Shown: piece after piece, positions 8,958 through 30,924 of the stretch | How positions within the stretch are numbered: the stretch's first letter is position 1 | Layout of the letters: every line of letters starts with the position of its first letter | From: an uncultured Ignavibacteriales bacterium | Lineage (GTDB): Bacteria; Bacteroidota; Ignavibacteria; UBA10030; SZUA-254 | Assembly (NCBI GenBank): GCA_963714795.1 | Contig: CAVQPS010000009.1 | Span: forward strand, 806,709 to 870,708 | Reading direction: 5' to 3' | DNA: 64,000 nucleotides | Made by a program: the position numbers and the translations under genes | The notes under the pieces: model-generated | What the model was told of the DNA's origin: nothing | Seen by the model: the letters and a program-made list of their open reading frames with translations, nothing else | Database searches by the model: none

Positions 8958-11823
8958 TTATCTTACGGTGTACGTGAACGTTGCCAGAAAATATCGGCCT
9001 AAAACTTCATTCTGGATATCTTCAACGTACGATTCCGTGATCATGCGGTTGACGCTCTTGTTCTGGTTCAGGAGATCGTTCACACCGATCTGAAGTTCTC
9101 CGCGCTGGCTGGCAAAAAACTTGTGTGCAAGATTTAAACTCCAGAGCCAGATGTTTTCATCGTATCCGGCACCCAACCCGTTGTAAAGCGTGTTGTCCAA
9201 CTCATTTCTCAGAACAAATCCATTGAGGAAGATCAGATTGAATTTTATTCCTGCTGTTTGTGAATAGTAATTATTGTTCAATTGCAGCTCGCTGCTGTTC
9301 TTTGCAATATTGTAATTCCCGGTATAGGACAGGGTAAAGTCGACATCGGTGCTGATGTTACTGGAAATGACTCCACCCGCGGTTAATGCGGAAGTATTAT
9401 TGAGATTCAAAGCACCATTGACGAGACCCGGTGTGCGGGTAAAGTTGTAACCGGCGGTGAGATTGAGATTGCTGCTGATGAGTCCTATCGGCAGGCCGTA
9501 CGTCAGAAAAAATCTTGCATTCCAATAATCGTCGAGGTTCACAGGCGTTGTTAATTGACTTCCCTGATGCAGCAGAATACCCTGGCTCAGCAAAGAATCC
9601 TTCGTCGCAGTGTAGATGGAATTGGCAACATAGTTGTTTGTTTCCTGGGCAGTGAGGAAAATAAACAGGCTATGACCTTCCCGTGCATTCGTCAAGCCAT
9701 AACGCAGCAAGATAGTCTGTCCATATGACTGGGTGAGATTCGGATTGCCGCCGGTGAGTTGCAGAGGATTGGAGTTGTCGATAACGTTTTGCAATTGTGC
9801 GATCGTCGGTGCCGTGGTTGACGTCCTGTAGAAAAAACGTAAGTTCGTGTTATCCGTGAAGGTATAATTGAGCATTGCCGAAGGAAGCACGTTGTAAAAT
9901 GTTCTGTTCACGACGTTCGAAAATGGATACACTTGCGTTCCATCCAGCGAAGCAATCTGGTACGCGGCGTTGATCATGAGGTTCAGTGTAGAAACATGAA
10001 TGCGGTACCCGATCCCGGCATTTTGCGTTGTGTACGTGTTGTGAAATGTGTTCGAAAGCAACGTGTCGGGTAACGTGAAGGCATCTGTTTGTGAATCAAA
10101 TGCATAACGGCGATTATCTGAATTATTCTTTGTGTACGAAGGATTGTATGTCAACTGAACCTGACTAAAAACTCCGACCGGTTCGGTGTACGCGAGGCGG
10201 GGCGAAATCGTATAGCCGTCCGTGTTGAGCGTGGTATGTTCATTCAGCAGGGAATCGTAATTCTGCGTGATATAGTTCTGAAGAGAATAGACCGACCCCG
10301 TGCCCTGTTTCAGGTTTGAACTCCAACCGATGTCCAGCGACACGGTTCTTCCGGGAAGATCGAATTTGTGACGTAATGTAAGGTGGCTTGAAATGTTATT
10401 TCCCGTATATTCGGAACCGTTAATGTTTTCCACATCGGTGATCGGCCCCGACATGTTCGTCATAGAACCGGTCAAATTGCTTCCGGAATTGTTGGATTGA
10501 AAGTACACATGCGGGCGTAAAAATAATGGAGTTCGAAGAATCGAATAAATACACCGCGCGGGTATCGAACCGATGGTTAACATTGCTGCTGTTGGAGTTT
10601 GTCGCCTGCCTGTAAACCTGTTGAGAATCCTGCTGAAGTTGATATGTCTGCGCAAGGTTCTGAAGATTATTGTTCGCCGTGTGATTAAAAAAATAACCCT
10701 GGTTGATGGTAAAATTACTGTCAAAGCTGTCGTTGAAATTCGCGCCGACTGAATTCGTATTGGTAATACCGGTTTGCTGGCCGACAAGAAAATTACCAAC
10801 GTTAATACCGCTGTTTCCGCCGCCGCCCCCACCGCCGCCGCCATTTCCACCCCCACCGCCATAAAAGCCGCCGCCGCCGCCACCGCCACCACCTCGCCCA
10901 CCACCACCACCGCCGCCACGACCGCCGCCGCCAAATCCACCTCCGTTGGAAGTATTGTTTGTAACGCCGAGAATATCCTGCGTTGAAAAATTCTGTTGGT
11001 TGACATTATTGGAAAGCCCGATCAACGTCAATCGGCTGTCACCTTCGAACGAATTAACGCTCCCGCCGGCGATATAGTGATCGTCGTCGCCGTATCCCGC
11101 GTAAACCTTTCCAAAATTTTGGTTGCGCCGGTTCTTACGCGTAACTATATTCATCGTCTTCAACGATTGACCGTCATCGAAGCCGGTGAACTGTGCCTGA
11201 TCGCTCATCTGGTCAAACACTTGAATTTTATCGACTGCGTCGGCAGGGAGATTGTGTAATGCCAGCAACGGATCGCTTCCGAAGAACGGTTTCCCGTCAA
11301 GAAGAACTTGTTGCACGTTTTCACCCTGGGCATGTACGCCGGTGTTATCAATCGACACGCCGGGCAATTTCGTCACGAGGTCTCCGGCATCCGCATCCGG
11401 GTGAACTTTAAATGCGCCTGCGTTAAATTCAGCAGTATCCGCTTTTTGCTCGGCCGGAACGACCTGTCCTTCCACCACGATCTCGCCAAGCTGAACTGCG
11501 CTCACAGACATGGCGATATCGCCGGCATCGATAGATGGTTTGTCGACCACCACGGTTTTATAGGCTGAGGAATAGCCGACGTATGTGGCAGTAATTACGT
11601 AGGTATTGAAATTAACATTCCCGAATATAAACTTGCCGTCAATATCGGTGCCGACGAACTCGGCTTTTGTCGAGTCTGACTTGAGGGAAAGACGGACCGT
11701 TACTCCGACAAGCGGGGATTTGTTCTTGCCATCGATGATCCGTCCCTGCACCGTGCTTATCTGGGCAAGTGCCGGAATCGAATACCACACAACTAAAATA
11801 AGGACGAGAAGTTTTCTGAACAT
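8958..11823 (-). CDS. TonB-dependent-receptor-like outer-membrane protein (signal peptide, CarboxypepD_reg-like, Plug-like, Gly-rich linker, large beta-barrel). A frameshift near 10520 splits it into two ORFs.
   Basis: The 467-aa ORF (11823->10420) has a signal peptide MFRKLLVLILVVWYSIPALAQ, the CarboxypepD_reg-like GRIIDGKNKSPLVGVTVRL, a plug-like segment, then GGGFGGGGRGGGGGGG.... The 682-aa ORF (to 8958) continues the N/S/T/Y-rich barrel. The first ~140 aa of that ORF (Ala/Val-rich) are a wrong-frame reading of the GGN repeat. The two frames switch near a T5/A5 run around 10520. Confidence 0.75.
10814..10950 (-). repeat. (GGN)n low-complexity coding repeat that encodes a poly-Gly/Arg linker
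   Basis: On the + strand it reads as ccgccgccgcc/caccacc repeats. On the - strand it translates to GGGFGGGGRGGGGGGGRGGGGGGGGGFYGGGGGNGGGGGGGGG. Confidence 0.9.
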
Positions 11824-14276: not shown

Positions 14277-15656
14277 ATGTTCTCTTACACAATCATAAAT
14301 CAAGGTATGAACAGAACATTCAATCTTGCAGCTATTTTTTCTTGCCTGACGATGATGATTTGGTCGCCCGCCATCGCACAACATTCAACTGCCGATTCAG
14401 TAAAAGCCGAGTTTCTTCACGCATGGAACGGCTATAAACAATTCGCCTGGGGGCACGATGCTCTGAAACCGCTGAGCAAACAGCCGCGCGATTGGTACGG
14501 CAAATCATTCTGCATGACGCCGGTCGACGCGTACGACGTCTTGATGGTGATGGGACTTTCCGGTGAAGCTGCGGAAGCAAAAAAGCTTATTTTCGATACT
14601 CTTTCATTTAACAGAGATGTCGAAATCCAGAGTTTTGAGATTACCATTCGGCTGCTTGGCGGACTGTTATCGTCCTATCAGATCGACGGCGACAAACGCT
14701 TTCTTGATCTTGCTGAAGATCTCGGGAAGCGACTTCTTCCTGTTTTCAATTCGTCGACCGGAATGCCGTATCGTTTTGTCAATCTTCAAACCGGAAAAAT
14801 CCGCGATTCGATCAACAATCCCGCCGAAATCGGAACATCGTTAATTGAATTCGGCACACTCAGCAAACTGACCGGCAATCCTGTCTATTATGAAAAGTCA
14901 AAACGTGCGCTTGTACAATTATTTAATCACCGATCGAAAATCGGACTTGTCGGTACATGGATCAATGTGGAAACGGGAATGTGGGTCGATTCGACAAGCC
15001 ATATCGGCGGTGCCATCGATTCATATTATGAATATCTCATCAAATCATGGCTCCTCTTTGGCGATACGGATTGCAAAAACATGTGGGATGAAAGCATTAC
15101 GGCAATCAACACTTACATTGCCGATACAATGCACAGCGGATTGTGGTATGGTCAGGCAAACATGGAAACAGGAAAACGTATCGGCACCGAGTTCGGATCG
15201 CTTGAAGCTTTTTTCCCCGCGGTGCTTTGCCTCTCCGGAGATGTCGAGCGTGCGAAGAAACTGGAAGAATCATGTTTCGCGATGTGGAACGTTTATGGTA
15301 TCGAACCGGATGGGTTCAATTATGTTACGATGTCGGCAACGGAGAAAAACTATCCTCTGCGCCCTGAAATCATCGAGTCGGCGTATTATCTTTATCATTA
15401 TACCGGTGACCAAAAATATCGTCAAATGGGAGAAACATTTTTTCACTCTATCATGAATTACTGTCGTACCGATGACGCGTATGCCGCTCTCCAGGATGTT
15501 ACGACGAAACAGAAAACCGATTCGATGGAAAGTTTTTTCTTTGCCGAAACATTGCAATACCTCTATTTGTTATTCTCACCGGAGGAAACTCTGCCGTTCG
15601 ATTCGGTTATTTTCAATACGGAAGCGCATCCGATACGAATAACCTGGAAGAAATAA
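14277..15656 (+). CDS. Glycoside hydrolase family 47 (class I alpha-1,2-mannosidase-like), secreted. The likely start is the Met at 14307.
   Basis: Signal peptide MNRTFNLAAIFSCLTMMIWSPAIAQ. It has the GH47 family pattern, including RLLGGLLSSY and AIDSYYEYL. Confidence 0.75.
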   Translation: MFSYTIINQGMNRTFNLAAIFSCLTMMIWSPAIAQHSTADSVKAEFLHAWNGYKQFAWGHDALKPLSKQPRDWYGKSFCMTPVDAYDVLMVMGLSGEAAEAKKLIFDTLSFNRDVEIQSFEITIRLLGGLLSSYQIDGDKRFLDLAEDLGKRLLPVFNSSTGMPYRFVNLQTGKIRDSINNPAEIGTSLIEFGTLSKLTGNPVYYEKSKRALVQLFNHRSKIGLVGTWINVETGMWVDSTSHIGGAIDSYYEYLIKSWLLFGDTDCKNMWDESITAINTYIADTMHSGLWYGQANMETGKRIGTEFGSLEAFFPAVLCLSGDVERAKKLEESCFAMWNVYGIEPDGFNYVTMSATEKNYPLRPEIIESAYYLYHYTGDQKYRQMGETFFHSIMNYCRTDDAYAALQDVTTKQKTDSMESFFFAETLQYLYLLFSPEETLPFDSVIFNTEAHPIRITWKK

Positions 15657-15744: not shown

Positions 15745-17127
15745 TTGTATGAAAAGAAAAATTTTATCGGGCGTATGAACCCGGCACATGAATCCCGGGA
15801 ATCGGACAAGACAAAAGCGCGACGTTTTGGACATGTTTTTCGGGCACTCCGTTTCAGAAACTATCGGCTCTTTTTCGGCGGACAACTCATTTCGCTGATC
15901 GGCACATGGATGCAGCAAATTGCGCTAACCTGGCTCGTGTACCGTCTCACGAATTCAGCATTTCTCCTTGGACTGGTCGGATTTGCCGGGCAACTGCCGA
16001 TGTTTCTTCTCGGTCCGCTTGCCGGCGTGATTGCCGACCGGTTGAATAAACAACGCATCATCATCATTACGCAAACTCTTTCCATGATTCAGGCCGGGAT
16101 ACTTGCTGTGCTTACGCTGACCGGTACGATTGCAGTGTGGCACATCATGGTCCTCAGTATTTTTTTAGGACTCATCAATGCATTCGATATGCCGACCCGC
16201 CAATCGTTTTTACTGGAGATGATTGAAAATAAAGATGAACTCGGAAATGCCATTGCTCTGAATTCTTCCATGTTCAACGGTGCACGATTAGTGGGGCCAT
16301 CCATTGCGGGATTGGTTATCGCCGCGATCGGTGAGGGGCTTTGTTTTTTTCTGAATGCCGTCAGTTATATTGCGGTCATTATAGCGTTACTCGCCATGAA
16401 ACTTCCGCCGCGTCATCATCATCAAAAAAAATCCCGCGGGATGATGGTTGAATTTAAGGAAGGGTTTCGGTATGTGGTCGGCTTTTCCGCCATCCGGAAT
16501 ATTCTTCTTCTGATTGCGCTTGTCAGTCTTGCCGGAATGCCATACATGGTGCTCATGCCGGTATTTGCAAAAGATATTTTACATGGCGGTCCGCACACAC
16601 TCGGGTTTCTGATGGGTGCAGTCGGAGTCGGGGCATTGTCCGGTGCATTGATTCTTGCCTCAAGAAAAAATGTTGTCGGACTCAGCCGGTGGATTCCGTT
16701 TTCTGCAACCGTGTTTGGCGCGGGGATCATCGGTTTTTCGTTCTCCCGGGCTCTTCCGCTTTCGATGGTTTTGTTGTTCATCGCCGGACTGGGAATGATG
16801 GTACAAATTGCCTCGAGCAATACGATTATGCAGACAATTGCCGACGACGATAAGCGTGGTCGCGTAATGAGTTTTTATACCATGTCATTTGTCGGAATGA
16901 CACCGTTCGGCAGCCTTCTCGCCGGAAGTCTGGCAAGCTCCATCGGAGCTCCTTCAACCGTTTTCATCAGCGGAATTGTATGCATAGCGGGCGCGATCAT
17001 TTTTGCTCTTCAATTGCCGTCGTTACGGAAACAAATTCATCCGATTTATGTGAAGCTGGGAATTATCCCGGAAATATCATCCGGCATACAAACCGCGAGC
17101 CAGCTGGCACGACCGCCGGCAGAGTGA
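15745..17127 (+). CDS. MFS transporter with 12 TM helices. An alternative start lies at 15775.
   Basis: Repeated 6+6 hydrophobic helices with MFS motifs (GPLAGVIADRLNKQR after TM2). Confidence 0.8.
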   Translation: MYEKKNFIGRMNPAHESRESDKTKARRFGHVFRALRFRNYRLFFGGQLISLIGTWMQQIALTWLVYRLTNSAFLLGLVGFAGQLPMFLLGPLAGVIADRLNKQRIIIITQTLSMIQAGILAVLTLTGTIAVWHIMVLSIFLGLINAFDMPTRQSFLLEMIENKDELGNAIALNSSMFNGARLVGPSIAGLVIAAIGEGLCFFLNAVSYIAVIIALLAMKLPPRHHHQKKSRGMMVEFKEGFRYVVGFSAIRNILLLIALVSLAGMPYMVLMPVFAKDILHGGPHTLGFLMGAVGVGALSGALILASRKNVVGLSRWIPFSATVFGAGIIGFSFSRALPLSMVLLFIAGLGMMVQIASSNTIMQTIADDDKRGRVMSFYTMSFVGMTPFGSLLAGSLASSIGAPSTVFISGIVCIAGAIIFALQLPSLRKQIHPIYVKLGIIPEISSGIQTASQLARPPAE

Positions 17128-17237: not shown

Positions 17238-18500
17238 GTGGATAAATTCGTTATTCAGGGCGGTAAAAAACTAAAAGGGAAGGTTGTCATCAGCGGCTCG
17301 AAAAATGCGGCACTCGCGCTGATGCCGGCAACACTTCTCGCGAGCGGCAGGTATCATTTCCGGAATATTCCCGAGCTTCGCGATGTGATCACGATGGGAA
17401 AACTGCTCCAGATGATGGGGGTGGATGTTGAAAGAAACGGGCATGAGCTTCAGATGAATACGTTTCGCGTCAATAAGTTTGAAGCGCCGTACGAACAGGT
17501 GAAAAAAATGCGTGCGTCGATTTACGTTCTCGGCCCGTTGATCGCACGCTACAGTTATGCAAAAGTGTCGTTACCGGGAGGATGTGCGTGGGGACCCCGT
17601 CCCGTCAATCTTCATATCGAAGGAATACGGAAACTCGGCGCGCATATCGATATTGAAGAAGGATATATTATTGCAAAAGCCAAACGGCTCAAAGCCGCGA
17701 AGATTCATTTCGATGTTTCCAGCGTCGGTGCTACCGGCAACATTATGATGGCGGCAGTGTTGGCAAAAGGAACGACTCGAATTACCAATGCCGCGATGGA
17801 ACCGGAGATTGTCGCTCTCGGCAATTTTCTCGTCAAGATGGGCGCACACATCGGCGGAATCGGTACAGCGAAGCTGGAGATTGAAGGTGTCGATCAGCTT
17901 CATCCGGCCGATGAAACAATGATTCCGGATCGCATTGAAGCGGGAACATTTCTCGTTGCGGCGGCAATAACAGGCGGAACGGTAACCATCGAACACTGTG
18001 AGCCGTTGCATCTGACAGCAATTCTCTCGAAACTCAAAGAAGCCGGTGCATCAATACAAATCGGTGACACATGGATTACGATATCGATGCCGAAATCGAT
18101 TAAATCGGTGAATGTAACGACGGAAATTTATCCCGGCTTTCCGACAGATATGCAGGCGCAATGGCTGTCATTAATGTCGATCGCAAAAGGATCGGCGACC
18201 ATCACCGATTCGATTTATTATGATCGCTTTAAGCACGTTCCGGAACTTACGCGTCTCGGTGCCGATATTGTTTTGAACCACAATGCTGCCATCGTCCATG
18301 GCGTCAAAAAATTAACCGGTGCAAAAGTGATGTCGACCGATTTACGCGCTTCGGCGAGTTTGGTTCTTTCCGGACTTGTTGCCGGAGGGAAAACCGAAGT
18401 CCTGCGCGTCTATCACCTCGACCGAGGTTATGAAGCAATTGAAAAAAAATTACTCGCATTAGGTGCGAAGATCAAACGGGTTTCCGGTCAGGAATTTTAA
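17238..18500 (+). CDS. murA: UDP-N-acetylglucosamine 1-carboxyvinyltransferase
   Basis: GTG start. [37 protein letters not shown]... has the MurA hallmarks. 420 aa. Confidence 0.92.
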
Positions 18501-18514
18501 ACCACGACAGATGT

Positions 18515-19264
18515 ATGACAAAAATTATTGCCGTCATGCCCGCCTATAATGCTGCCCTCACGCTGGAACCAACTGTGCGGGATATACCTCCGGGAGTTGT
18601 CGATGAAATTATCGTCGTCGATGACAGCAGTAAGGATAACACCGTGGAACAGGCGCGGCGATTAGGATTGACCGTCGTTCAGCATGAAAAAAATAAAGGA
18701 TACGGCGGAAATCAAAAAACATGTTACCGCCTTGCCCTTGAACGCGGCGCTGATATTGTTGTGATGATCCATCCTGATTACCAGTACGACAGCAAGCTGA
18801 CGCCGTATCTTGTCGGTTTTTTGCGTGACCGCTATTTCGATGTGATGCTCGGTTCGCGTATCCGCACGCGGAAAGAAGCTTTTGCCGGGGGCATGCCGAA
18901 ATACAAATATGCAGCCAACCGCATGCTGACGCTTGCAGAAAATATTTGCACCGGCATGAATCTTTCCGAGTGGCATACCGGGTTTCGTGCATTTACGAAA
19001 GAAGTGCTGGAGACCATTCCCTGGCAGCAAAACTCAGATGATTTTGTATTTGATAGCCAGATGCTCCTCCAATGTGTTGCGTTCGGGTTCCGTGTCGGCG
19101 AAATTCCCGTTCCCGTGCGCTACCACGATACCGCCTCATCTATTAATTTTTTCCGTAGTGTTCGGTACGGAATCGGAACGCTGTCTGCCGTCGGAACATT
19201 TCTGTTGCACCGATTTCATGTTGGCCATCCGGAAATGTTTCGCCGAAAAGAATTTCAAACCTGA
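18515..19264 (+). CDS. GT2 polyprenyl-phosphate hexose (mannose/glucose) synthase, Dpm1/Ppm1/ArnC-like
   Basis: The N-terminus [15 protein letters not shown]...[10 protein letters not shown] has the GT2 DxD context. The C-terminal pattern GSRIRT...[11 protein letters not shown]...[27 protein letters not shown] resembles eukaryotic Dpm1 (GSR...FRLYRKEVLE...IGEVPI). Confidence 0.75.
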
Positions 19265-19275
19265 CATTCTTCCAC

Positions 19276-21159
19276 ATGCCATCCCGGGCTGAAAATTTTT
19301 CACCGTTGCTCGAATCGGTTCGCCTGCGTTGGAAGTCGCTTGCCGTTATTACCGTCGTTGTTTTCTGTGTGTACGGACAGACATTGCAATTCGGTTTTAT
19401 CAATTATGATGACGATGAACTCGTGTATCATAATGCCGCATTTCTTTCTCACTGGGAAAATATCGGAACGGCATTCGGCAGTCATGCCTTTATCGGCGCC
19501 GGTGGAGAAAGCATCTATTACCGCCCGCTGTTAACCGCCAGCTATATTATAGATTTTCATATTTGGAGACTGAATCCGCTCGGATATCATGTAACAAATA
19601 TTCTGTTGCATTGCCTGACATCGCTGGGAGTGTTTTTTCTGATACTTTTCATTCTTCAATCGGAATTGCCAGCTTTTGCCGGTGCACTTGTCTTTGCAAT
19701 TCATCCGGTTCAGACCGAATCCGTTGCGTGGATTGCCGGACGCAACGACCTGCTGTTGGGATTATTTGTGGTCGCGATGTTGATCTTTTATGCCGTTAGC
19801 ACCGCTCAACGTGTCATTGAAAAACCGTTTCGCTTTCTCGCATGGTTTGCCTTTCTGGCGGCATTGTTCACAAAAGAATCCGCCGTCTTTTATTTGTTGC
19901 TTCTGCCGTTGTATGATCTGTGCACCGGTACAAGTACGTTACGAACCATCTGTTCGTTCGGTTATTTCAGAAAATTCCGGATGATGATCATAACGGTTAT
20001 TGCTTATTGCGGAATCCGTTTGATGATTTTCGGAACGGTCATCGGTGCGGAACGGTTGTACGGTCACCGAACAATCGGTGAACGTATCGCCAATATTTTT
20101 CCGATCGTTGCTGAAAATCTGAAATTCATTTTTCTTCCGACGAGTCTCAGTATTGCTCATCCGTTAAACGAACTTCAGTGGTTTCATGCTCCGTGGACTG
20201 TGATAGCATTTGTGATGGTTTTGGTTCTTGCTGGCGTTGCAATATGGTCCTGGAGAAAAGATCGCATGTTGTGTTTCGGTATATTCTGGATCGTTGCCGG
20301 ATCTCTTCCGCTGATGGGGTTGATTCCGGTTGCGATCCCGATTTTAGAACATCGATTATATGTGCCGATGGCCGGATGTGCGATTGTTGTTGCGCGATTG
20401 ATTCAGATGTTGTATGAAAAATTCAAATTGCGAACGATATCATATGTGCTTATTACGGTTTTGGGGATTGTATTAGCCGGATGTTCCCACGCCCGGCTGC
20501 CGGTGTGGAGTAACGGTATCACGCTATTTACCGATGCAGTGCAAAAAGCGCCGTCCTATGCTCCGTCGTTTTTCAGTCTCGGTGCTGCATATTTTGAAGC
20601 GGAACGGTATACCGAAGCAATTCAACCGATGAAAACGTATCTTTCGCAAGCGCCCGTCGATCCGAATGCGCTTTCATTACTGCGTGAAATATATTTTCGT
20701 GCACAACAGTACAACGACGCCGCCGAGATTTCCCGCAGATTAATTTTGCTAGAGCCGCATAATTCCCGGCGCTTTCTTGAGGCAGGAATGCTGTTCGAAG
20801 CAATGCATCAATATGACAGTGCCGCAGTCATGTATCAAAAAGGATTGACCATCGATACTGCGAATGAAGAAATATATATTCATCTTGCCGATATGTATCA
20901 GAAGCAGGAACGTTTAGGAGATGCAGAAGAAAGTTATCGTCGGGTACTTGAGATGGATCCATTGAATGCCGTTGCACCGGTCGCTCTGGCCCGTGCGTTC
21001 GAAGCTCAGGGAAAAAATGATGAAGCAATTCATCTTTTGGAACAACGTATTGCCGCAGGTGAGCCGTCACGTGAAATGATCAACCTTCTGGTATCGCTGT
21101 ATAATAAATCGGGAGACCTGTTAAAAGCGGATCAACTATCGAAACGATTTCACCCATGA
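19276..21159 (+). CDS. TMTC-like GT-C membrane protein (DUF1736-type region with a YYRP motif) plus C-terminal TPR repeats
   Basis: N-terminal polytopic region with a DDDE acidic motif in the first loop and IYYRPL. The C-terminal third shows TPR-like repeats (AYFEAERYTEAIQPMKTYL..., MYQKGLTID...). Confidence 0.7.
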   Translation: MPSRAENFSPLLESVRLRWKSLAVITVVVFCVYGQTLQFGFINYDDDELVYHNAAFLSHWENIGTAFGSHAFIGAGGESIYYRPLLTASYIIDFHIWRLNPLGYHVTNILLHCLTSLGVFFLILFILQSELPAFAGALVFAIHPVQTESVAWIAGRNDLLLGLFVVAMLIFYAVSTAQRVIEKPFRFLAWFAFLAALFTKESAVFYLLLLPLYDLCTGTSTLRTICSFGYFRKFRMMIITVIAYCGIRLMIFGTVIGAERLYGHRTIGERIANIFPIVAENLKFIFLPTSLSIAHPLNELQWFHAPWTVIAFVMVLVLAGVAIWSWRKDRMLCFGIFWIVAGSLPLMGLIPVAIPILEHRLYVPMAGCAIVVARLIQMLYEKFKLRTISYVLITVLGIVLAGCSHARLPVWSNGITLFTDAVQKAPSYAPSFFSLGAAYFEAERYTEAIQPMKTYLSQAPVDPNALSLLREIYFRAQQYNDAAEISRRLILLEPHNSRRFLEAGMLFEAMHQYDSAAVMYQKGLTIDTANEEIYIHLADMYQKQERLGDAEESYRRVLEMDPLNAVAPVALARAFEAQGKNDEAIHLLEQRIAAGEPSREMINLLVSLYNKSGDLLKADQLSKRFHP

Positions 21160-23447
21160 ACAAAAACCTTCATCGACGAACGGTTTTCATTGCCGGCATT
21201 CTGTTGCTGGCGGTGTCGTTAGTGTTTATCAATATTCCGCTCTTGAATTATTTGGGGTACGAATTTTCCACGGCAATCGCCCTGATTGTTCCCTGGATAC
21301 TATGGTTTCCGACATCATTATCAGTTCGTGAATGGATGAAAGAAAACGGAACCGGTTCATTGCGCGGCTTTCGGTCGCTGGTTACCTCGTGCGTTTTTAC
21401 CGGATTCGGACTCTTATTGATTCCGTTGATAGTCGGAGGCCTGAATGTTTTCTTCGTGAAGAATTGTGCGATTGCCGAAGGGGCTTTCTATTATATTCTT
21501 CATCCGTTGGTGACGGCATTCTGGTCGATTGCCCTTTCAATGATATGTTGTGTCCTGGCACGACGACCGTTTCGTCTCTATGCCACAATTCTCGTGTTGA
21601 CTCTTTTGTATCCTTTCTATATCGGTTATGTTTCGCCTCAGATTTATTCGTACAATTTCATTTATGGATTTTTCCCCGGTATTTCGTATGACGAAGTCGT
21701 GCGAATCACGCCGACACTGATTCTCTTCCGGTGTATAACGATTGCGATGGCATTCATGTTCCTGCTGGTGGCATCGCTGGTGATACAAAAATCATCGCCG
21801 GACCGAAAATTCCATGAAAAAATAATGTCCTTGTTTTCACCTTTTCAACCGAAGACAACACAATTATCGGCCCTGGTTCTTGTGATTGGTTTGATCGTTG
21901 TTTGGGTTATTCGTGTCCCGCTCGGTTTTGAAACTTCCGAAGCTTCTATTCGAAAGACTCTTTCTTCACATATCCAAACGGAACACTTTACGATTTATTA
22001 TGCCCCGGCATCATTTTCTCATGATGAAATACAATGGGTCGCCGCTCTTCATGAATTTCGGTATGAACAGGTCTGCACGGCGCTTCACGTAACGATACCG
22101 GTTTCCATGACGTCATATATTTATCCTGATGAGGATACAAAACGCGAGGCAATCGGCACATCAACCACCAATATTGCCAAGCCATGGAGAAAAGAAATCC
22201 ATCTCGACGTTCATTCGTGGCAGGAAACGCTGAAGCATGAGATCGTGCATGTTGTCGCGGGCGAATTCGGCATGCCTGTTATCAAAGCGCATTATCATAT
22301 CGGATTGGTAGAAGGACTTGCGATGGCGATCGACGGCGAGTACGGTAACCGCACTCTCCATGAATATGCCGCGGCAATTAAAACATTTCACCTGATCAAT
22401 AATCCGGGAAGTCTTATCACACCAATCGGTTTTGCAACGCACGGGTCTTCTCTCAGTTATGTGTTGATGGGATCGTTCTGCCGCTATCTTCTTGATCGTT
22501 ACGGCGTCGTACGGTTCAAAGAATTATACGGAGGAAGTTCGGTGGAGAAAGTGTACGGAACGTCGTACCAGAACCTTGTGGACGAATGGCAGTCGTTTCT
22601 GGATCGCATCGTTGTTCCCGGGTCATGGAAGGATCATGTGGAATTTTATTTCAACCGCCCTTCTATTTTTGCAAAGGAATGCGTTCGTACTGTTGCCATA
22701 TTAAATGAAGAAGCAAACCGGAAGCTTGCACACCGTGATTGGGACGGCGCGATTCACGATTTCAAGCAAGCGCTGATGACGAATTGGAACACCGAATCGT
22801 ATGCGGGCATTCTTCGGTCTTCGTATGCCGCCGGCTATTTTGATACCGTGGTCAGTTTATTCGATACCGTGAATCGGGATAGTTCCACGCACTCGGCGTT
22901 TCTCGGATTTCTGTTGGCATACGGTGATGCCGAGTGGCATGAAGGGAACGAGAATTCCGCCGCTGAGGCATATCGAGAGATTCTTCGTATCGATCTTTCC
23001 CGGTCGGTCGACGAAGCGGCAACTGTCCGGCTGGAGGCAATGGACGATCCTGTGGTCGGCCCGATTTTTCCGAAATATCTTTCCATCGCTCAATCCGATA
23101 CAGCTTCATGGAATTTTCTTGATTCGTGTTCACAACTGAAGAATACTCCGTTTCTGCGATTTCTTGAAGCAAGAGCCGGGTTGCGACTGGAAAAATTTCA
23201 ACAGGTGATCGATCTGCTTCAGCTCGATTCAATGCGATTTGCCCATCCCGAATTGAATGCATCGAAAGAACTGATGCTTGGACAGGCATCGCTGCGTTTG
23301 TTGCAATTTCAAAATGCCCGCGCACATTTTTGGCGCTCGCTGAATTTTATCGACAATCTTGCAGCAATGCAGCAAGTGTATGATTGGATTAAACGATGTG
23401 AATGGTATGAACAACATGAACGACAATACTTCAATTCTAAAAAATAG
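21156..23447 (+). CDS. Large polytopic membrane protein with an HExxH...E metallopeptidase-like motif and a TPR-like C-terminal region
   Basis: About 9 predicted TM helices in the first 260 aa, then HEIVHVVAGEF and GLVEGLAMAIDGEYG (a gluzincin-like arrangement), then helical repeats. It overlaps the upstream stop (ATGA). Confidence 0.55.
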   Translation: MNKNLHRRTVFIAGILLLAVSLVFINIPLLNYLGYEFSTAIALIVPWILWFPTSLSVREWMKENGTGSLRGFRSLVTSCVFTGFGLLLIPLIVGGLNVFFVKNCAIAEGAFYYILHPLVTAFWSIALSMICCVLARRPFRLYATILVLTLLYPFYIGYVSPQIYSYNFIYGFFPGISYDEVVRITPTLILFRCITIAMAFMFLLVASLVIQKSSPDRKFHEKIMSLFSPFQPKTTQLSALVLVIGLIVVWVIRVPLGFETSEASIRKTLSSHIQTEHFTIYYAPASFSHDEIQWVAALHEFRYEQVCTALHVTIPVSMTSYIYPDEDTKREAIGTSTTNIAKPWRKEIHLDVHSWQETLKHEIVHVVAGEFGMPVIKAHYHIGLVEGLAMAIDGEYGNRTLHEYAAAIKTFHLINNPGSLITPIGFATHGSSLSYVLMGSFCRYLLDRYGVVRFKELYGGSSVEKVYGTSYQNLVDEWQSFLDRIVVPGSWKDHVEFYFNRPSIFAKECVRTVAILNEEANRKLAHRDWDGAIHDFKQALMTNWNTESYAGILRSSYAAGYFDTVVSLFDTVNRDSSTHSAFLGFLLAYGDAEWHEGNENSAAEAYREILRIDLSRSVDEAATVRLEAMDDPVVGPIFPKYLSIAQSDTASWNFLDSCSQLKNTPFLRFLEARAGLRLEKFQQVIDLLQLDSMRFAHPELNASKELMLGQASLRLLQFQNARAHFWRSLNFIDNLAAMQQVYDWIKRCEWYEQHERQYFNSKK

Positions 23448-23457
23448 TGTTTTCACG

Positions 23458-25117
23458 ATGATGAGTCGGGAAGATCGACGGAATATTGCTATTCTCGTCG
23501 CTCTGACATTTTTTTCACTGATTCTTTTTGTGAACAAGGCGGTGCATATCGATGATACGCTCTTCATCCGCGTTGCACAACAAATTCAATCACACCCCGC
23601 TCGATCCGTATAACTTCACGGTAAACTGGTTCGGTACCGACCGGCCGATGTATGGCGTGACAAAAAACCCGCCGCTGGTCTCGTATTACCTTGCATTGAT
23701 CGGCTCCATTGCGGGCTGGAGCGAACCGGCGCTGCATTGCGCGATGATGATTCCGGCAATTTTCTGTATTATCGGAATTTATATTCTTGCCCGGCAATTT
23801 TGTTCGAAACCGTTTGAAGCCGCTCTCGTTTCGTTGTTTTCACCGGCATTTCTTCTTTCGTCGACGACGCTCATGTGTGATGTGATGATGCTGTGTCTCT
23901 GGATATGGTCGATCATTTTTTGGATGAACGGAATTCGCAGCCGGTCCCGGTCACAGTTGATCATCGCATCATTTCTCATAGCACTTTCCGCTTTGACAAA
24001 ATATTTCGGCGCGGCACTCATCCCGCTTTTGGCTGTATGGACTATTGCAGAACGCAAACGAATCGATTCTTCGCTCATCGCGATGGTGATTCCGGTTGTG
24101 ATTCTTGCAGGATATCAATGGCTGACAATGAAATATTACGGTCATGGACTTCTTTTTGATGCGGCTTCGTACGCGACCGATAATGAAGTTCGCGGGTTCA
24201 CCGCTTATGTTTCGAAAAGTTTCGTCGGATTGGCATTTACCGGCGGGTGTTTTATTGCCCCACTATTCTTTTCGCACACGTTGTGGAGCCGAAAGTCTCT
24301 TGTTCGCACTGGAATTATTTCCGGCATGATTTTTTTAACGGTCGTACTATTTCAAAGCATTTCCGGTTCGATTCATCTGAACGAGAAGAGCGTGTCGTGG
24401 ACATTCATTTTTCAATTCGGCCTTTTGGATCTGATCGGAATGACAGTCATTTCGCTTGCGATAGCGGATGTCAAAAAGCATCGGGATGCTTCTTCGTTGA
24501 TGATTATTTGTTGGATCGTGGGGACATTTCTTTTTACGATTTTCATCAACTGGACGGTCAACGGCCGCTCGATATTGCCGCTGGTACCGGCGGCAGCAAT
24601 CCTGTTGATGCGACGATATGATGATCGGTGGAATAACGCCGAACCGCATAGTACGCTAACCGTTGTTGCACCGATTATCGTTTGTGCAATCGTTGCGCTC
24701 ACCGTTACCTATTCGGATTTTTCTCTCGCCAATGCTATCCGTGACGATGTCACCGCAATTTGGTCTCATCCCCGCACACCGAATTCGAAAATCTGGTTCG
24801 AAGGCCATTGGGGTTTTCAATATTACATGGAAACATCGGGCGGAAAAGCTTTCGATGTGGAACGGAGCACGCTCAACCGCGGCGATATTGTTATTATTCC
24901 GGTCAATAATACATCGTTGTATCATCTGCCGGAGCGTTATTTTGTGTTGAGCGACTCCCTTCTGGGCAACGGCATATCCTTGCTCGCGACGATGAACAAT
25001 ACCGCGGGAGCCGGATTCTATTCCGATTTTTGGGGACCGATGCCGTTTGTTTTTGGAGAAATTCCGCCGGAAAAATACTATGTCTACATCCTCAAAGAAG
25101 GAATCGCAATTCATTGA
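23458..25117 (+). CDS. GT39/ArnT-like (PMT_2) GT-C glycosyltransferase. A -1/+1 frameshift near 23598 separates the first TM segment from the rest.
   Basis: The frame-1 N-terminus MMSREDRRNIAILVALTFFSLILFVNKAVHIDDTLFIRVAQQIQSHP is followed in frame 2 by LDPYNFTVNWFGTDRPMYGVTKNPPLVSYYLAL.... Together they give the ArnT/PMT first-loop pattern (D-D...HPPL). The shift lies in the CCCC run at about 23597-23600. Confidence 0.7.
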
Positions 25118-25179
25118 TCAAAAATTTTTGAACGATCCTTCAGCATTGCTTCTCTATTATAAGTTCCCTATTTTCTGTT

Positions 25180-26214
25180 ATGCAATCGATTAAACGCATC
25201 CTTCTTTCACGGATGAAATACATCGGCGACATTGTGTTGACGACGCCGGTTATCCGCGCGACACGGGAGAAATTTCCGGACGCATATATTGCGTACCTTG
25301 GCGATAAAAAAGCCACCTCGCTGCTCGAACACAATCCCTATCTTGATGAAATTCTTTCATACGATTTTACCCGTCCGGATATGCTTGAACAAATCCGCAT
25401 GATCATCCAGATTCGAAAACGGAAGTTCGATGTCTTTGTCGATCTCTTTTCCAACCCGCGCACGGCGATGCTTGCCCGTGCAAGCGGTGCCCCGATCCGG
25501 ATCGGCAAAGATGTGAAGGGAAGAGGTAAAGTCTACACCCATCGTGTCGGCGATTACGGAAGCATGAAGTCGGCAATTGAATTTCATTATCAGTATGTAA
25601 AACCGCTCGGTGTGGAAATGAAATATTTCCAGACGGAAATTTTTTTGACGGAAGACGAGCGGCGCGAAGCACGTATTTTTCTCAAACATCAGGACGTCGA
25701 TATCGCAAAACCGATCGTTGCTCTTCATCCCGGCGCAACGTGGAGCAATAAGATGTGGGATAAAAACCGGTTTGCGGAACTGATCGATCTTCTGCGTGCA
25801 AAACTCGGTGTCGAAATTCTTCTCAGCCCCGGTCCGGAAGATCAGCAATTAATGAATTCGATCATCAACAATACCACCGCCAACGTTCATCTCTTACCGG
25901 TCTTGCCGGTGCGCCAGCTTGCTGCAATTCTGTCGCAATGTGCGGTATTCGTTTCGAATGATTGCGGCCCGATGCACATCGGCGTTGCTGTCGGTACAAA
26001 AACAATCGGCATTTTCGGTCCGGAACCGCCGGAAGTGTGGTTTCCCTATTCTGCAAACGACGGTCATCTCGCTCTGTTCAAAAAAATCGAATGCTCACCT
26101 TGCCGTACGACAAGCTGTTTCCGTGAAGCTGAAAAGTTTATGGAATGTATGCAGTTGATTTCTGTTCGTGAAGTTTTCGATGAAGTCAAAAAAAGAATCA
26201 TTCCTGCTCAATAA
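25180..26214 (+). CDS. GT9 family glycosyltransferase (ADP-heptose:LPS heptosyltransferase-like)
   Basis: ILLSRMKYIGDIVLTTPVIRATREKFPDAYIAYL... and the C-terminal CGPMHIGVAVGTKTIGIFGP are typical of GT9. Confidence 0.8.
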   Translation: MQSIKRILLSRMKYIGDIVLTTPVIRATREKFPDAYIAYLGDKKATSLLEHNPYLDEILSYDFTRPDMLEQIRMIIQIRKRKFDVFVDLFSNPRTAMLARASGAPIRIGKDVKGRGKVYTHRVGDYGSMKSAIEFHYQYVKPLGVEMKYFQTEIFLTEDERREARIFLKHQDVDIAKPIVALHPGATWSNKMWDKNRFAELIDLLRAKLGVEILLSPGPEDQQLMNSIINNTTANVHLLPVLPVRQLAAILSQCAVFVSNDCGPMHIGVAVGTKTIGIFGPEPPEVWFPYSANDGHLALFKKIECSPCRTTSCFREAEKFMECMQLISVREVFDEVKKRIIPAQ

Positions 26215-26294: not shown

Positions 26295-27620
<1,326 letters not shown>

Positions 27621-29412: not shown

Positions 29413-30924
29413 ATGAAACGATCATCTTCAACGAAAAAATCAACGAAACGAAAAAAATCTTCCAAACAAAGGAAGGTTTTGTCACAAAAAGCTCAGACCG
29501 GTTCAGTCATACATTTCGGTACCGATGGGTGGCGGGGAAAGATTGCCGAAGATTATACATTTGATAACGTGCGGCGATGTACGCAGGGATTTGCAGGATA
29601 TTTGAAATCGATATATTCATCCGCCCAGCTTCAGCGCGGCGTTGTCGTTGGCGGTGATCGCCGGTTTAATTCCGAACATTTTGCCGCTGCAGCCGCCGAA
29701 GTTCTTGCGGGCAACGGCATTCCGGTTCATTTTTGCGGCGGCGGTGTGCCGACGCCGGTGATTTCATTCAGCGTCAAAGCGCGCAATGCGATTGCAGCGA
29801 TCAATATTACTGCAAGTCACAATCCTCCCGGCGACAATGGATTTAAAGTGCGTGATGAGAACGGCGGCGCCATTGCACCGGACGGGTTGAAAAAAATTGA
29901 AAAGCTTATTCCGAAAAATCTGACCGGCGTCAAGCAACTGAAGTTTTCCGACGGTAAATCGTCCGGTGTGATTAAAGAATTCAATGCCGATGCGCAGTAT
30001 ATCGAGCAAATCAAAAAAATGGTTGATCTCGGTCCGATCAAAAATGCGGGCTTGAAAATTCTTGTCGACCCGATGTGGGGAAACGGTGCCGGATGGTTCT
30101 CGCGGTTGATCGGCGGCGGCAAAACGCAGGTCATCGAAATTCATAGCGACCGGAACCCGTCGTTTCCGGAAATGGGAAGACCCGAACCGATCCAGCCGAA
30201 TATCGATGTCGGTTTGAATAAAGGAAAAGAAATCGGTGCGGATGTCGTGCTGATTACCGACGGCGATGCCGATCGCTGCGGTATCGGTGATGAACGCGGA
30301 CAGTTCATCGACCAGCTTCGCGTGTACGGTTTGCTGGCGTTGTATTTGCTTGAAGTGCGCGGACAGCGCGGAGCTATTGTGAAAACACTATCGACGACTT
30401 CGATGCTCGAAGCTCTCGGGAAAATATATAATGTTCCTGTTTATGAAACCGGTGTCGGATTCAAATATGTTGCACCGAAAATGATGGAGACCGATGCGCT
30501 CATCGGCGGCGAAGAAAGCGGCGGCTATGCATTCCGGAATCATGTGCCGGAGCGGGACGGGATTCTTGCCAATCTGTTTTTCCTCGACTTCATGGTGAAG
30601 ACCGGACTCAAACCGTCACAGCTTCTTCAGAAATTATTCGATAAGGTCGGGCCCCATTTTTACGATCGCATTGATACCGTCATCGATGCCGGTCAGAAAG
30701 AAAGCATTCTCAAAAAATTGAAAGCGAACTTTCCGAAAGAACTTGTCGGCCGGGAAGTGGTCAACACCAATCTATCCGATGGTTTCAAGTTCATTCTCAG
30801 CGACGGCAGCTGGTTACTCATCCGGTTTTCCGGAACAGAACCGCTGGTCCGGATGTATTCTGAAGCAGGAAGCCACGAGCTCGTTCAGAAAATTCTCGCC
30901 GCAGGGAAAGCGCTCGTTCAATGA
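29413..30924 (+). CDS. Alpha-D-phosphohexomutase (phosphoglucomutase/phosphomannomutase family) with a Lys/Ser-rich N-terminal extension
   Basis: Active-site [21 protein letters not shown], and the sugar-binding GGEESGG. The first ~30 aa ([20 protein letters not shown]) are low complexity. Confidence 0.85.

Follow-up and report, generated by a model that had tools for sequence, protein, structure and literature searches.

Two-step, lipid-linked transfer of single sugars is well known from eukaryotic and actinobacterial O-mannosylation and from the decoration of lipid A, O-antigen and teichoic acid. The closest described systems are the eukaryotic TMTC1–4 enzymes with DPM1, responsible for the Dol-P-Man O-mannosylation of cadherins, and the actinobacterial Ppm1 with its GT39 partner Pmt. 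A GT2 synthase likewise stands beside one or more GT-C enzymes in ArnC/ArnT, RgtE/RgtA-D, GtrB/GtrV, CsbB/YfhO and PpgS/Rv3779. To our knowledge, GT-Cs of the ArnT, RgtA-D, GtrV, YfhO and Rv3779 type have no TPR domain, and their targets are lipid A, O-antigen, teichoic acid and arabinogalactan. Searches of the literature found no bacterial enzyme of TMTC layout (GT-C plus TPR) that has been characterised.

The window analysed here, a stretch of 64,000 nucleotides from an uncultured Ignavibacteriales bacterium (assembly GCA_963714795.1, contig CAVQPS010000009.1), carries a glycosyltransferase pair that may be compared with these systems. Five consecutive plus-strand ORFs lie between murA and eno, with the coordinates given in the initial annotation, and are referred to as GT2, GT-C1, P763, GT-C2 and GT9 (Table 1). 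The initial family calls were broadly right. P763 is no glycosyltransferase, and the 521-aa ORF taken for GT-C2 is not the whole gene. Spacing is 14 nt from murA to GT2 and 11 nt from GT2 to GT-C1; GT-C1 and P763 overlap by 4 nt, the true start of GT-C2 follows P763 after 10 nt, and longer gaps precede GT9 (62 nt) and eno (131 nt). Promoter and terminator scans of the cluster gave counts no higher than those in shuffled sequence, so that spacing is what indicates that the genes may be co-transcribed.

Table 1. Features of the murA–eno slot, in window coordinates.
Feature	Position	Strand	Description
murA	17238..18500	+	upstream slot boundary; TIGR01072 3e-167, above cut-off
GT2	18515..19264	+	249-aa GT-A glycosyltransferase; Pfam Glycos_transf_2 7e-18
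GT-C1	19276..21159	+	627-aa membrane glycosyltransferase; GT-C residues 1-411, TPR ~414-625
P763	21156..23447	+	763-aa inner-membrane protein
GT-C2	23458..25117	+	PMT_2-family GT-C, ~552 aa as reconstructed; frameshifted
GT9	25180..26214	+	344-aa family-9 glycosyltransferase; adjoins eno; Pfam Glyco_transf_9 6e-35
eno (enolase)	26346..27620	+	downstream slot boundary; TIGR01060 4e-215

Synteny was compared over ~170 related loci, with counts taken from 80 species-level loci. The phylum-wide backbone of the slot is murA–P763–GT9–eno. P763 adjoins murA in every one of the 80 species-level loci with room upstream, and GT9 is present in 56 of the 68 with room downstream. GT-C1 occurs in 17 of the 80 loci, GT2 in nine and GT-C2 in two, and the GT2–GT-C1 cassette is patchy at this locus in Ignavibacteriota. 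Wherever GT2 is found in the slot, it is directly followed by GT-C1. GT2 lies directly 5' of GT-C1 in nine genome loci, 18 metagenome loci and L081-L089, and in many genomes the stop and start codons of the two genes abut or overlap, which bears out the initial view that they belong together. The pair also occurs without P763, both as murA-GT2-GTC1-eno and as murA-GT2-GTC1-GT9-eno. Because GT-C1 always follows GT2 and the pair is present with or without P763 and GT9, GT2 and GT-C1 are the real unit of this locus. The larger module of five genes proposed initially was not recovered, as other genomes do not carry its members as one set; P763 is a peptidase-fold protein and GT9 an LPS-core-type enzyme, and the pair is found without either. 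In other genomes, gaps in the slot are filled by ORFs (pilin-like, ATPase, pentapeptide and similar) that appear by eye to be unrelated insertions.

Copies of GT-C1 with no adjacent GT2 (eight genome loci and eight metagenome loci) must depend on a donor synthase from another locus. Two distant lineages again have a GT2, of 62-63% identity, in the company of PMT_2/TPR GT-Cs that are only ~27% identical. It lies directly upstream of such a GT-C in one (L128), while in the other (L158) a non-TPR PMT_2 GT-C sits between the two genes, echoing the combination of GT-C1 and GT-C2. Most of the distant GT-C/TPR relatives have no such GT2 in their vicinity. Among the related loci, median identity is 74% for GT2 versus 40% for GT-C1, and a conserved GT2 beside a diverged GT-C1 fits one fixed donor with diverging acceptors.

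Family resemblance and the constant GT-C partner make GT2 a candidate polyprenyl-phosphate-sugar synthase, the putative maker of the donor. Its best NCBIfam matches are PpgS (3e-20; 72.8 bits, cut-off 370), Dol-P-hexose transferase (7e-18; 64.3 bits, cut-off 375) and AglJ (2e-17; 63.9 bits, cut-off 325), with ArnC only at 8e-4, and all scores are far under every NCBIfam cut-off. The best PDB match is the Pyrococcus DPMS (5mlz, 1e-6). The GT2 segment 'IHPDYQYD' aligns with 'DADLQHPP' of DPMS, the catalytic DxD-L-Q segment, reading H-P-D-Y-Q where DPMS has D-A-D-L-Q, and the first aspartate of the DxD is a histidine. C-terminal membrane helices are absent, and GT2 homologues are 70-96% identical. 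The matches place GT2 nearer DPMS, PpgS and AglJ than ArnC, in agreement with its initial description as Dpm1/Ppm1-like. According to the initial annotation, assignment of GT2 to ArnC clades and of the GT-C proteins to ArnT clades would speak against protein glycosylation; such a placement was not observed.

The structural model of GT-C1 has a GT-C fold with Pmt4 and Pmt2 as its best structural matches, and is read as 11 helices in the TMTC arrangement, with the N-terminus inside and the C-terminus outside. The TPR domain, which comes after the final helix, is predicted to be periplasmic; residues 415-625 match Pfam TPR_1, TPR_2, TPR_19 and related families and form helical repeats in the model. 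When compared with the TMTC motif set M1-M7 (DD, SHKSYRP, RxD, KE(T/Q)xxT, DW, PxxP, ERxxY), GT-C1 conserves M1 (D45 D46), M2 as YRP only, M3 (RND; R156 D158), M4 (KE; K200 E201) and M7 (EHRLY; E358-x-R360-x-Y362), whereas M6 is approximate (P345, P351) and M5 (DW) is absent, with a conserved 'HP' in that loop. Fold, topology, motifs and the periplasmic repeats together uphold the initial call of a TMTC-like protein with C-terminal TPRs.

The window GT-C1 has no match to Pfam PMT or PMT_2, and none to TMTC_DUF1736 even at E <= 10; this last model matches one of 16 GT-C1 homologues at 0.008 (true TMTCs score < 1e-30), and Pfam PMT matches just a few homologues. PMT, MIR and PMT_4TMC have no Pfam match in either GT-C1 or GT-C2, the latter matching PMT_2 only, and at E <= 10 Pfam returned nothing on the membrane domains of GT-C1 and P763. 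Against PDB sequences, a full-length profile of GT-C1 homologues was swamped by TPR proteins and a profile of the membrane domain had no match, while Foldseek with the GT-C1 model returned only TPR structures from the PDB. Searched against plasmids by tblastn, the GT-C1 domain had a single archaeal match, weak and uninformative. NCBIfam assigned only TPR families to GT-C1, BcsC, PgaA and LapB among them; Domains of this kind also serve as scaffolds in polysaccharide and LPS machinery, of which these three are examples, a point against a protein acceptor.

GT-C2 is a sporadic accessory GT-C, found in the murA–eno slot only together with GT-C1. Its membership of PMT_2 (Pfam, 1.5e-13) agrees with the initial description as a GT39/ArnT-like enzyme, but no ArnT model matches it, and NCBIfam and PDB sequence searches gave no match. 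The 521-aa ORF (23552-25117) lacks the first membrane helix and the 'HIDD' motif, which are encoded in another frame from 23458. Frame A of 23458-23613 encodes 'MMSREDRRNIAILVALTFFSLILFVNKAVHIDDTLFIRVAQQIQSHP', and intact orthologues (551-586 aa) read ...KAVHIDDPLFIW...HPLDPYGF... across this region. In the window, the run CACCCC (23594-23599) is one base longer than in a relative of ~90% nucleotide identity, whose GT-C2 is intact (551 aa). The resulting +1 frameshift cuts the rest of the gene off from its first helix and its catalytic DD motif, and the homopolymer insertion is possibly an assembly error.

P763 belongs to an unrecognised envelope protein family and combines a seven-helix, ABC-2-permease-like domain with a periplasmic zinc-peptidase (gluzincin) fold and a C-terminus of TPR-like helical repeats. 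Only one family has these three parts in this fixed arrangement, and P763 reaches the cut-off of no Pfam or NCBIfam family. The HExxH noted initially is invariant in 111 homologues, and the protein has the features of gluzincins (clan MA), namely a thermolysin-like fold and HExxH...E, in which a Glu after the HExxH supplies the third zinc ligand. It shares the catalytic fold with M9/M1 gluzincins, and the gluzincin fold plus periplasmic TPR-like repeats with BepA (periplasmic zinc protease + TPR). The membrane domain superposes on permeases of the ABC-2 (type V) class, among them NosY and the ABCG membrane domains, but has seven helices rather than six, and no gene for an ATPase partner is nearby. 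P763 is found beside murA across the surveyed Ignavibacteria-like MAGs.

The call of GT9 as a GT9 transferase stands, with Glyco_transf_9 at 121 bits against a cut-off of 22. By sequence it resembles LPS-core heptosyltransferases and is a conserved resident beside eno. It scores 149 bits with heptosyltransferase III (TIGR02201, cut-off 170), other models of the WaaC/WaaF/WaaQ type scoring lower, and its PDB matches are 3tov (1e-31), WaaF (2e-10) and WaaC (2e-7), with no protein-heptosyltransferase among them. P763 and GT9 are the older, independently conserved occupants of the murA–eno slot and may be co-transcribed with the pair. P763 does not demonstrably belong with the glycosylation pair, and no mechanistic link ties either protein to it.

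We propose, with a probability of roughly 0.6, that the GT2–GT-C1 cassette carries out lipid-linked sugar transfer outside the cytoplasm, the acceptor most probably being Ser/Thr of envelope proteins. GT2, as a soluble or peripheral GT-A enzyme, would load one nucleotide-sugar residue onto polyprenyl (undecaprenyl) phosphate at the cytoplasmic face, and a flippase would then flip the lipid-linked sugar. The cluster encodes no candidate flippase. The ABC-2-like domain of P763 was considered for this role and rejected as the main reading, since most slots that lack the pair have P763 and the pair occurs without it. GT-C1, whose 11-helix fold carries the first-loop DD, RxD, KE and E-x-R-x-Y, would transfer the sugar in the periplasm, where its TPR domain may select the acceptor, most probably envelope-protein Ser/Thr as in TMTC/PMT; this is the least secure step. 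GT-C2 probably serves a second acceptor, drawing on the lipid-linked donor that GT-C1 would use.

It is rather unlikely that the pair, together with GT-C2, instead adds one sugar to LPS (at lipid A or the core) or to some other glycolipid of the envelope, with GT9 acting on the same molecule. ArnC/ArnT, RgtE/RgtA-D, LgmA/LgmB and GtrB/GtrV offer parallels for such a role, but the pair is found without GT9 and GT9 mostly without the pair. The much closer match of GT2 to PpgS than to ArnC, together with the want of an NCBIfam ArnT match for either GT-C and of other Arn-type genes in the cluster, also argues against it. We know of no lipid A or core GT-C transferase with a TPR domain, a further point on which GT-C1 differs. 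Modification of a cell-wall polymer or lipid-linked precursor (peptidoglycan, lipid II or a secondary polysaccharide) seems quite improbable, even though PpgS is the best NCBIfam match of GT2 and PpgS/Rv3779 on arabinogalactan and CsbB/YfhO on teichoic acids are precedents. The pair lies beside murA throughout the lineage and immediately beside murJ in the unrelated lineage L128; however, the murJ case is single, and the conserved murA–eno slot also holds unrelated genes, so that adjacency to murA may be historical. The fold results show no polysaccharide-binding module.

That all five genes form one glycosylation machine, in which P763 processes or presents substrates and GT9 extends the glycan, is very improbable and already largely refuted by synteny. 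The tight spacing on one strand from murA to GT9, the same five-gene order in close relatives (L091/L093 and L010/L097) and the TPR-type repeats that both P763 and GT-C1 put in the periplasm speak for it. Nevertheless, all sub-combinations occur, with P763 lacking glycosyltransferases in most loci and the pair lacking P763, GT9 or both. The nucleotide sugars on which GT9 enzymes act are cytoplasmic, so that the membrane separates these enzymes from the products of GT-Cs, and GT-C2 is frameshifted in the window.

A wider form of the envelope-protein proposal, that the pair of GT2 and TPR-bearing GT-C starts general periplasmic protein O-hexosylation in FCB-group bacteria as the counterpart of DPM1 and TMTC, with its orthologues as the enzymes that attach the protein-linked hexose of the general Bacteroidota O-glycan to Ser/Thr, is speculative and improbable as it stands; the patchy occurrence of the cassette at this locus in Ignavibacteriota speaks against it. 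The machinery for the general O-glycan core of Bacteroidota has not been found, and homologues of eukaryotic O-mannosylation were suggested (2025 review, PMC12871550). We found no identified Bacteroidota O-mannosyltransferase in the literature. If the acceptor is a protein, TMTC-type O-glycosylation would predate eukaryotes, and the cassette would supply a class of candidates for the enzyme, so far missing, that initiates O-glycosylation in Bacteroidota. Compact and well conserved, the GT2 and GT-C/TPR cassette is an experimentally tractable entry point.

The pair is probably a bacterial variant of the known two-step scheme, a candidate for lipid-linked sugar transfer with acceptors that are possibly proteins. 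With TMTC1–4, GT-C1 shares the 11-helix GT-C domain, the non-cytoplasmic TPRs and the first-loop DD, YRP, RxD, KE and E(x)RxY, and the Dpm1-like GT2 is the putative donor source. It differs from them in lacking TMTC_DUF1736 and M5 (DW), in a shorter helix 7-8 loop and in its bacterial host, where undecaprenyl phosphate would take the place of dolichyl phosphate as carrier. Yeast Pmt1/2/4 provide, in Pmt4 and Pmt2, its best structural matches; unlike the PMTs, GT-C1 is without the MIR domain and the PMT_4TMC region, a TPR domain standing in place of their MIR acceptor module. By predicted roles, the pair shares the synthase plus GT-C scheme of actinobacterial Ppm1 and Pmt (GT39), although GT2 has no membrane or partner domain as in Ppm1. 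GT2 also lacks the C-terminal membrane helices of GtrB and ArnC, and its similarity to ArnC is marginal. The service of several GT-Cs by RgtE resembles the association of GT2 with GT-C1 and GT-C2 in the window and the corresponding arrangement in L158.

All seven genes from murA to eno lie on the forward strand of the window between 17238 and 27620, and the five same-strand genes placed between murA and eno by the initial annotation are present, with the extent of GT-C2 in need of correction. The successive intergenic gaps are 14, 11, −4, 10, 62, and 131 nt, the fourth (P763 to GT-C2) being counted to the true GT-C2 start. It is this spacing that suggests co-transcription from murA to GT9, since simple promoter and terminator scans gave site counts no higher than in shuffled sequence.

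Coordinates of the murA–eno genes and of neighboring features in the window
Feature	Position	Strand	Remarks
KdpD sensor N-terminal domain, 324 aa	5576–6550	+	
DUF4118-HisKA-HATPase kinase, 580 aa	6519–8261	+	overlaps KdpD ORF by 32 nt
TonB-dependent-receptor/OMP_b-brl_3 gene	8958–11823	−	frame switch at about 10513–10526
GH47 alpha-mannosidase-family protein, full-length	14277–15656	+	Pfam 3.7e-128
MFS_3 transporter	15745–17127		after GH47, before murA
murA	17238–18500	+	TIGR01072 3e-167
GT2, 249 aa	18515–19264	+	
GT-C1, 627-aa membrane protein	19276–21159	+	C-terminal TPR repeats
P763, 763-aa polytopic protein	21156–23447	+	HExxH
GT-C2, PMT_2-family membrane protein	23552–25117 (ORF)	+	
GT9 enzyme	25180–26214	+	
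Enolase	26346–27620	+	
Phosphoglucomutase/phosphomannomutase-family gene	29413–30924	+	3' of eno

A P763-anchored retrieval yielded 80 species-level genome loci (L001–L080), all from Ignavibacteria-like or 'Bacteroidota bacterium' MAGs, in which the seven proteins were placed by tblastn. P763 lay directly 3' of murA or of a GT2/GT-C1 insert in all loci with room upstream; murA was upstream of it in 73 of 73 such loci, and GT9 and eno were downstream in 56/68 and 54/64 of the loci with room on that side, respectively. The most frequent arrangement was murA-P763-GT9-eno (31 loci). GT-C1 was found in 17, GT2 in nine, and GT-C2 in two of the 80 loci, which contradicts the initial proposal that the five genes form one module. 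Look-ups seeded with GT-C1 or GT2 homologs retrieved further loci with the orders murA-GT2-GT-C1-eno (L081–L084, L089), murA-GT2-GT-C1-GT9-eno (L087, L088), and murA-GT2-GT-C1-P763-GT9-eno (L085, L086). When metagenomes were scanned with the membrane domain of GT-C1 as anchor, 26 near relatives were recovered; GT2 was immediately 5' of GT-C1 in 18 of them and missing, with murA abutting GT-C1, in eight, and one locus (L098) reads murA-GT2-GT-C1-GT-C1'-GT-C2 without P763. No in-slot GT2 without GT-C1 directly downstream was seen in the surveyed loci of the lineage, and no GT-C2 in the slot without GT-C1. From these arrangements, P763 and GT9 are older slot occupants independent of the GT2–GT-C1 pair. 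What remains of the five-gene "module" is a cassette of two genes, joined now and then by a third, with a patchy distribution at the murA–eno locus in Ignavibacteriota. Median identity is 74% for GT2, versus 40% for GT-C1 and 37% for P763.

GT2 matches Glycos_transf_2 alone in Pfam. Its top NCBIfam models are PpgS (3e-20), a haloarchaeal Dol-P-hexose transferase (7e-18), and AglJ (2e-17), compared with 8e-4 for ArnC, so that polyprenyl-phosphate sugar synthases rank first, as expected from the earlier Dpm1/Ppm1-like assignment, with all scores well under the family cut-offs. The closest solved structure is the Pyrococcus Dol-P-Man synthase, and the alignment spans the catalytic segment (a 13-letter stretch versus MDADLQHPPEVIP). 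The protein is short, and no C-terminal membrane helices were seen in its sequence; human DPM1 and PpgS likewise lack them, in contrast to GtrB and ArnC. From the family resemblance and the constant GT-C partner, we infer that GT2 is the donor synthase.

For GT-C1, residues 1–411 had no Pfam match even at E ≤ 10, and a few homologs match PMT_2 (8e-9), PMT (3e-6), or TMTC_DUF1736 (0.008). The AF2 model, built with 105 sequences, has a pLDDT of 94.9 and a pTM of 0.91, and PMTs are its top structural matches. Together with the positive-inside rule, the model indicates 11 helices, a long periplasmic loop 7–8, and an external TPR domain, which is the arrangement of TMTCs. Invariant or nearly invariant residues among the homologs are D45 D46 (NYDD), Y82 R83 P84, H143 P144, R156 D158, K200 E201, H295, P345, and E358 R360 Y362. 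Five of the seven tabulated TMTC motifs (PMC7801869) are present, namely M1 (DD), M2 (in part), M3 (RxD), M4 (KE), and M7 (ERxxY), whereas M5 (DW) is absent and M6 is approximate only. The TMTC-like description in the initial annotation holds for the layout and the TPR domain and in part for the motifs, but not for Pfam DUF1736, to which the window protein has no match. True PMTs have a MIR domain, which GT-C1 lacks. The modeled layout is like that of a TMTC- or PMT-type enzyme.

Distant GT-C/TPR relatives (25–33% identity) mostly have no window-type GT2 in their vicinity. The exceptions are two loci, L128 (5181–9181), with a GT2 (62% identical) followed by a PMT_2/TPR GT-C immediately upstream of murJ, and L158 (590–5051), with, in order, a GT2 (63% identical), a TPR-less PMT_2 GT-C, and a PMT_2/TPR GT-C, a window-like combination of one GT2 with two GT-C kinds. 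Tandem GT-C/TPR paralogs, two to three in a row, are frequent in other lineages (L098, L122, L130–L132, L169–L170).

The 521-aa ORF of GT-C2 lacks the first membrane helix and the acidic loop motif, and the missing N-terminal part is encoded in a different frame just 5', from 23458 (MMSREDRRNIAILVALTFFSLILFVNKAVHIDDTLFIRVAQQIQSHP). Intact orthologs, 586 aa long in L001 and 570 aa in L010, run uninterrupted through '...KAVHIDDPLFIW...HPLDPYGF..NW.G..RPMY..TKNPP', and a relative with ~90% nucleotide identity to the window and the identical five-gene order (L091/L093) carries an intact GT-C2 of 551 aa. In the DNA alignment, the CACCCC run of the window (23594–23599) has one base more than the relative. 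A second frame change adjoins an A5 run (~10519–10523) in the TonB-dependent-receptor-like gene, which occupies two overlapping frames in the window versus one 950-aa ORF in L091. Since two homopolymer indels occur in one window, an assembly error is plausible; alternatively, GT-C2 may be a real pseudogene. The two KdpD-type ORFs may represent a natural split of KdpD or a further frameshift.

P763 joins an ABC-2-like membrane domain to a gluzincin fold and to TPR-like repeats matching the TPRs of BamD, YbgF, LapB, and BepA; no known family attains the cut-off for this architecture, and no ABC ATPase gene lies nearby. A word-indexed search gave more than 430 family members and an exhaustive search with the membrane domain gave 674 cluster representatives; of the full-length proteins among the 150 matches listed, nearly all have ~700–810 aa and an N-terminal match. 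By the positive-inside rule, the peptidase part, the TPR part, and every conserved loop of the membrane domain are periplasmic. P763 is not a glycosyltransferase and looks like an envelope zinc peptidase; the HExxH noted initially is confirmed by the invariant H361, E362, and H365, joined by an invariant E386, but its place in a glycosylation module is not.

The GT9 family assignment is solid, as first annotated. Among the models, it comes closest to LPS heptosyltransferase III and RfaQ, in each case under the cut-off, and its closest structures are 3tov, WaaF, and WaaC; no protein heptosyltransferase was matched in the structure search. Because GT9 enzymes are cytoplasmic and use nucleotide-sugar donors, it is unlikely that products pass directly between GT9 and the periplasmic GT-Cs.

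The best-supported reading, with a probability of about 0.6, is that GT2 would synthesize a polyprenyl-phosphate sugar, which a flippase would translocate across the membrane for periplasmic transfer by GT-C1 to an acceptor picked by its TPR domain, and that GT-C2, where intact, would draw on this donor to modify a further acceptor. Transfer by GT-C1 to protein is tentatively favored by the TPR domain, the TMTC-like layout, and the PMTs as top structural matches. Decoration of LPS or a glycolipid by the pair is judged unlikely. Modification of a cell-wall polymer, at which the murA/murJ adjacency and the PpgS resemblance hint, seems quite improbable, and an integrated five-gene machine, largely refuted by synteny, still more so.

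The GH47 protein, with a signal-peptide-like N-terminus as read from its sequence, is encoded two genes upstream of murA and belongs to a chiefly eukaryotic ER/Golgi family. The same GH47-MFS pair is upstream in L001 and L090–L092, lineages that also bear GT-C2; any connection with a glycan that contains mannose would be speculative. The phosphoglucomutase/phosphomannomutase gene directly follows eno in many relatives and follows modA/modB in the window; in L081–L089 it precedes DUF4921 and glycogen phosphorylase genes, and it probably serves glycogen metabolism rather than sugar-donor supply.

No characterized bacterial TMTC-like enzyme turned up in the literature searches; prokaryotic TMTC homologs are stated to exist, with nothing further said of them (PMC7801869). 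According to a 2025 review, no enzyme has yet been identified that attaches the conserved core of the general O-glycan of Bacteroidota, the protein-linked sugar of this core is a hexose, reported as mannose, and homologs of eukaryotic O-mannosylation enzymes are suggested as a place to look (PMC12871550). The GT2–GT-C1 pair is a candidate of this class, although the link is a long shot at present.
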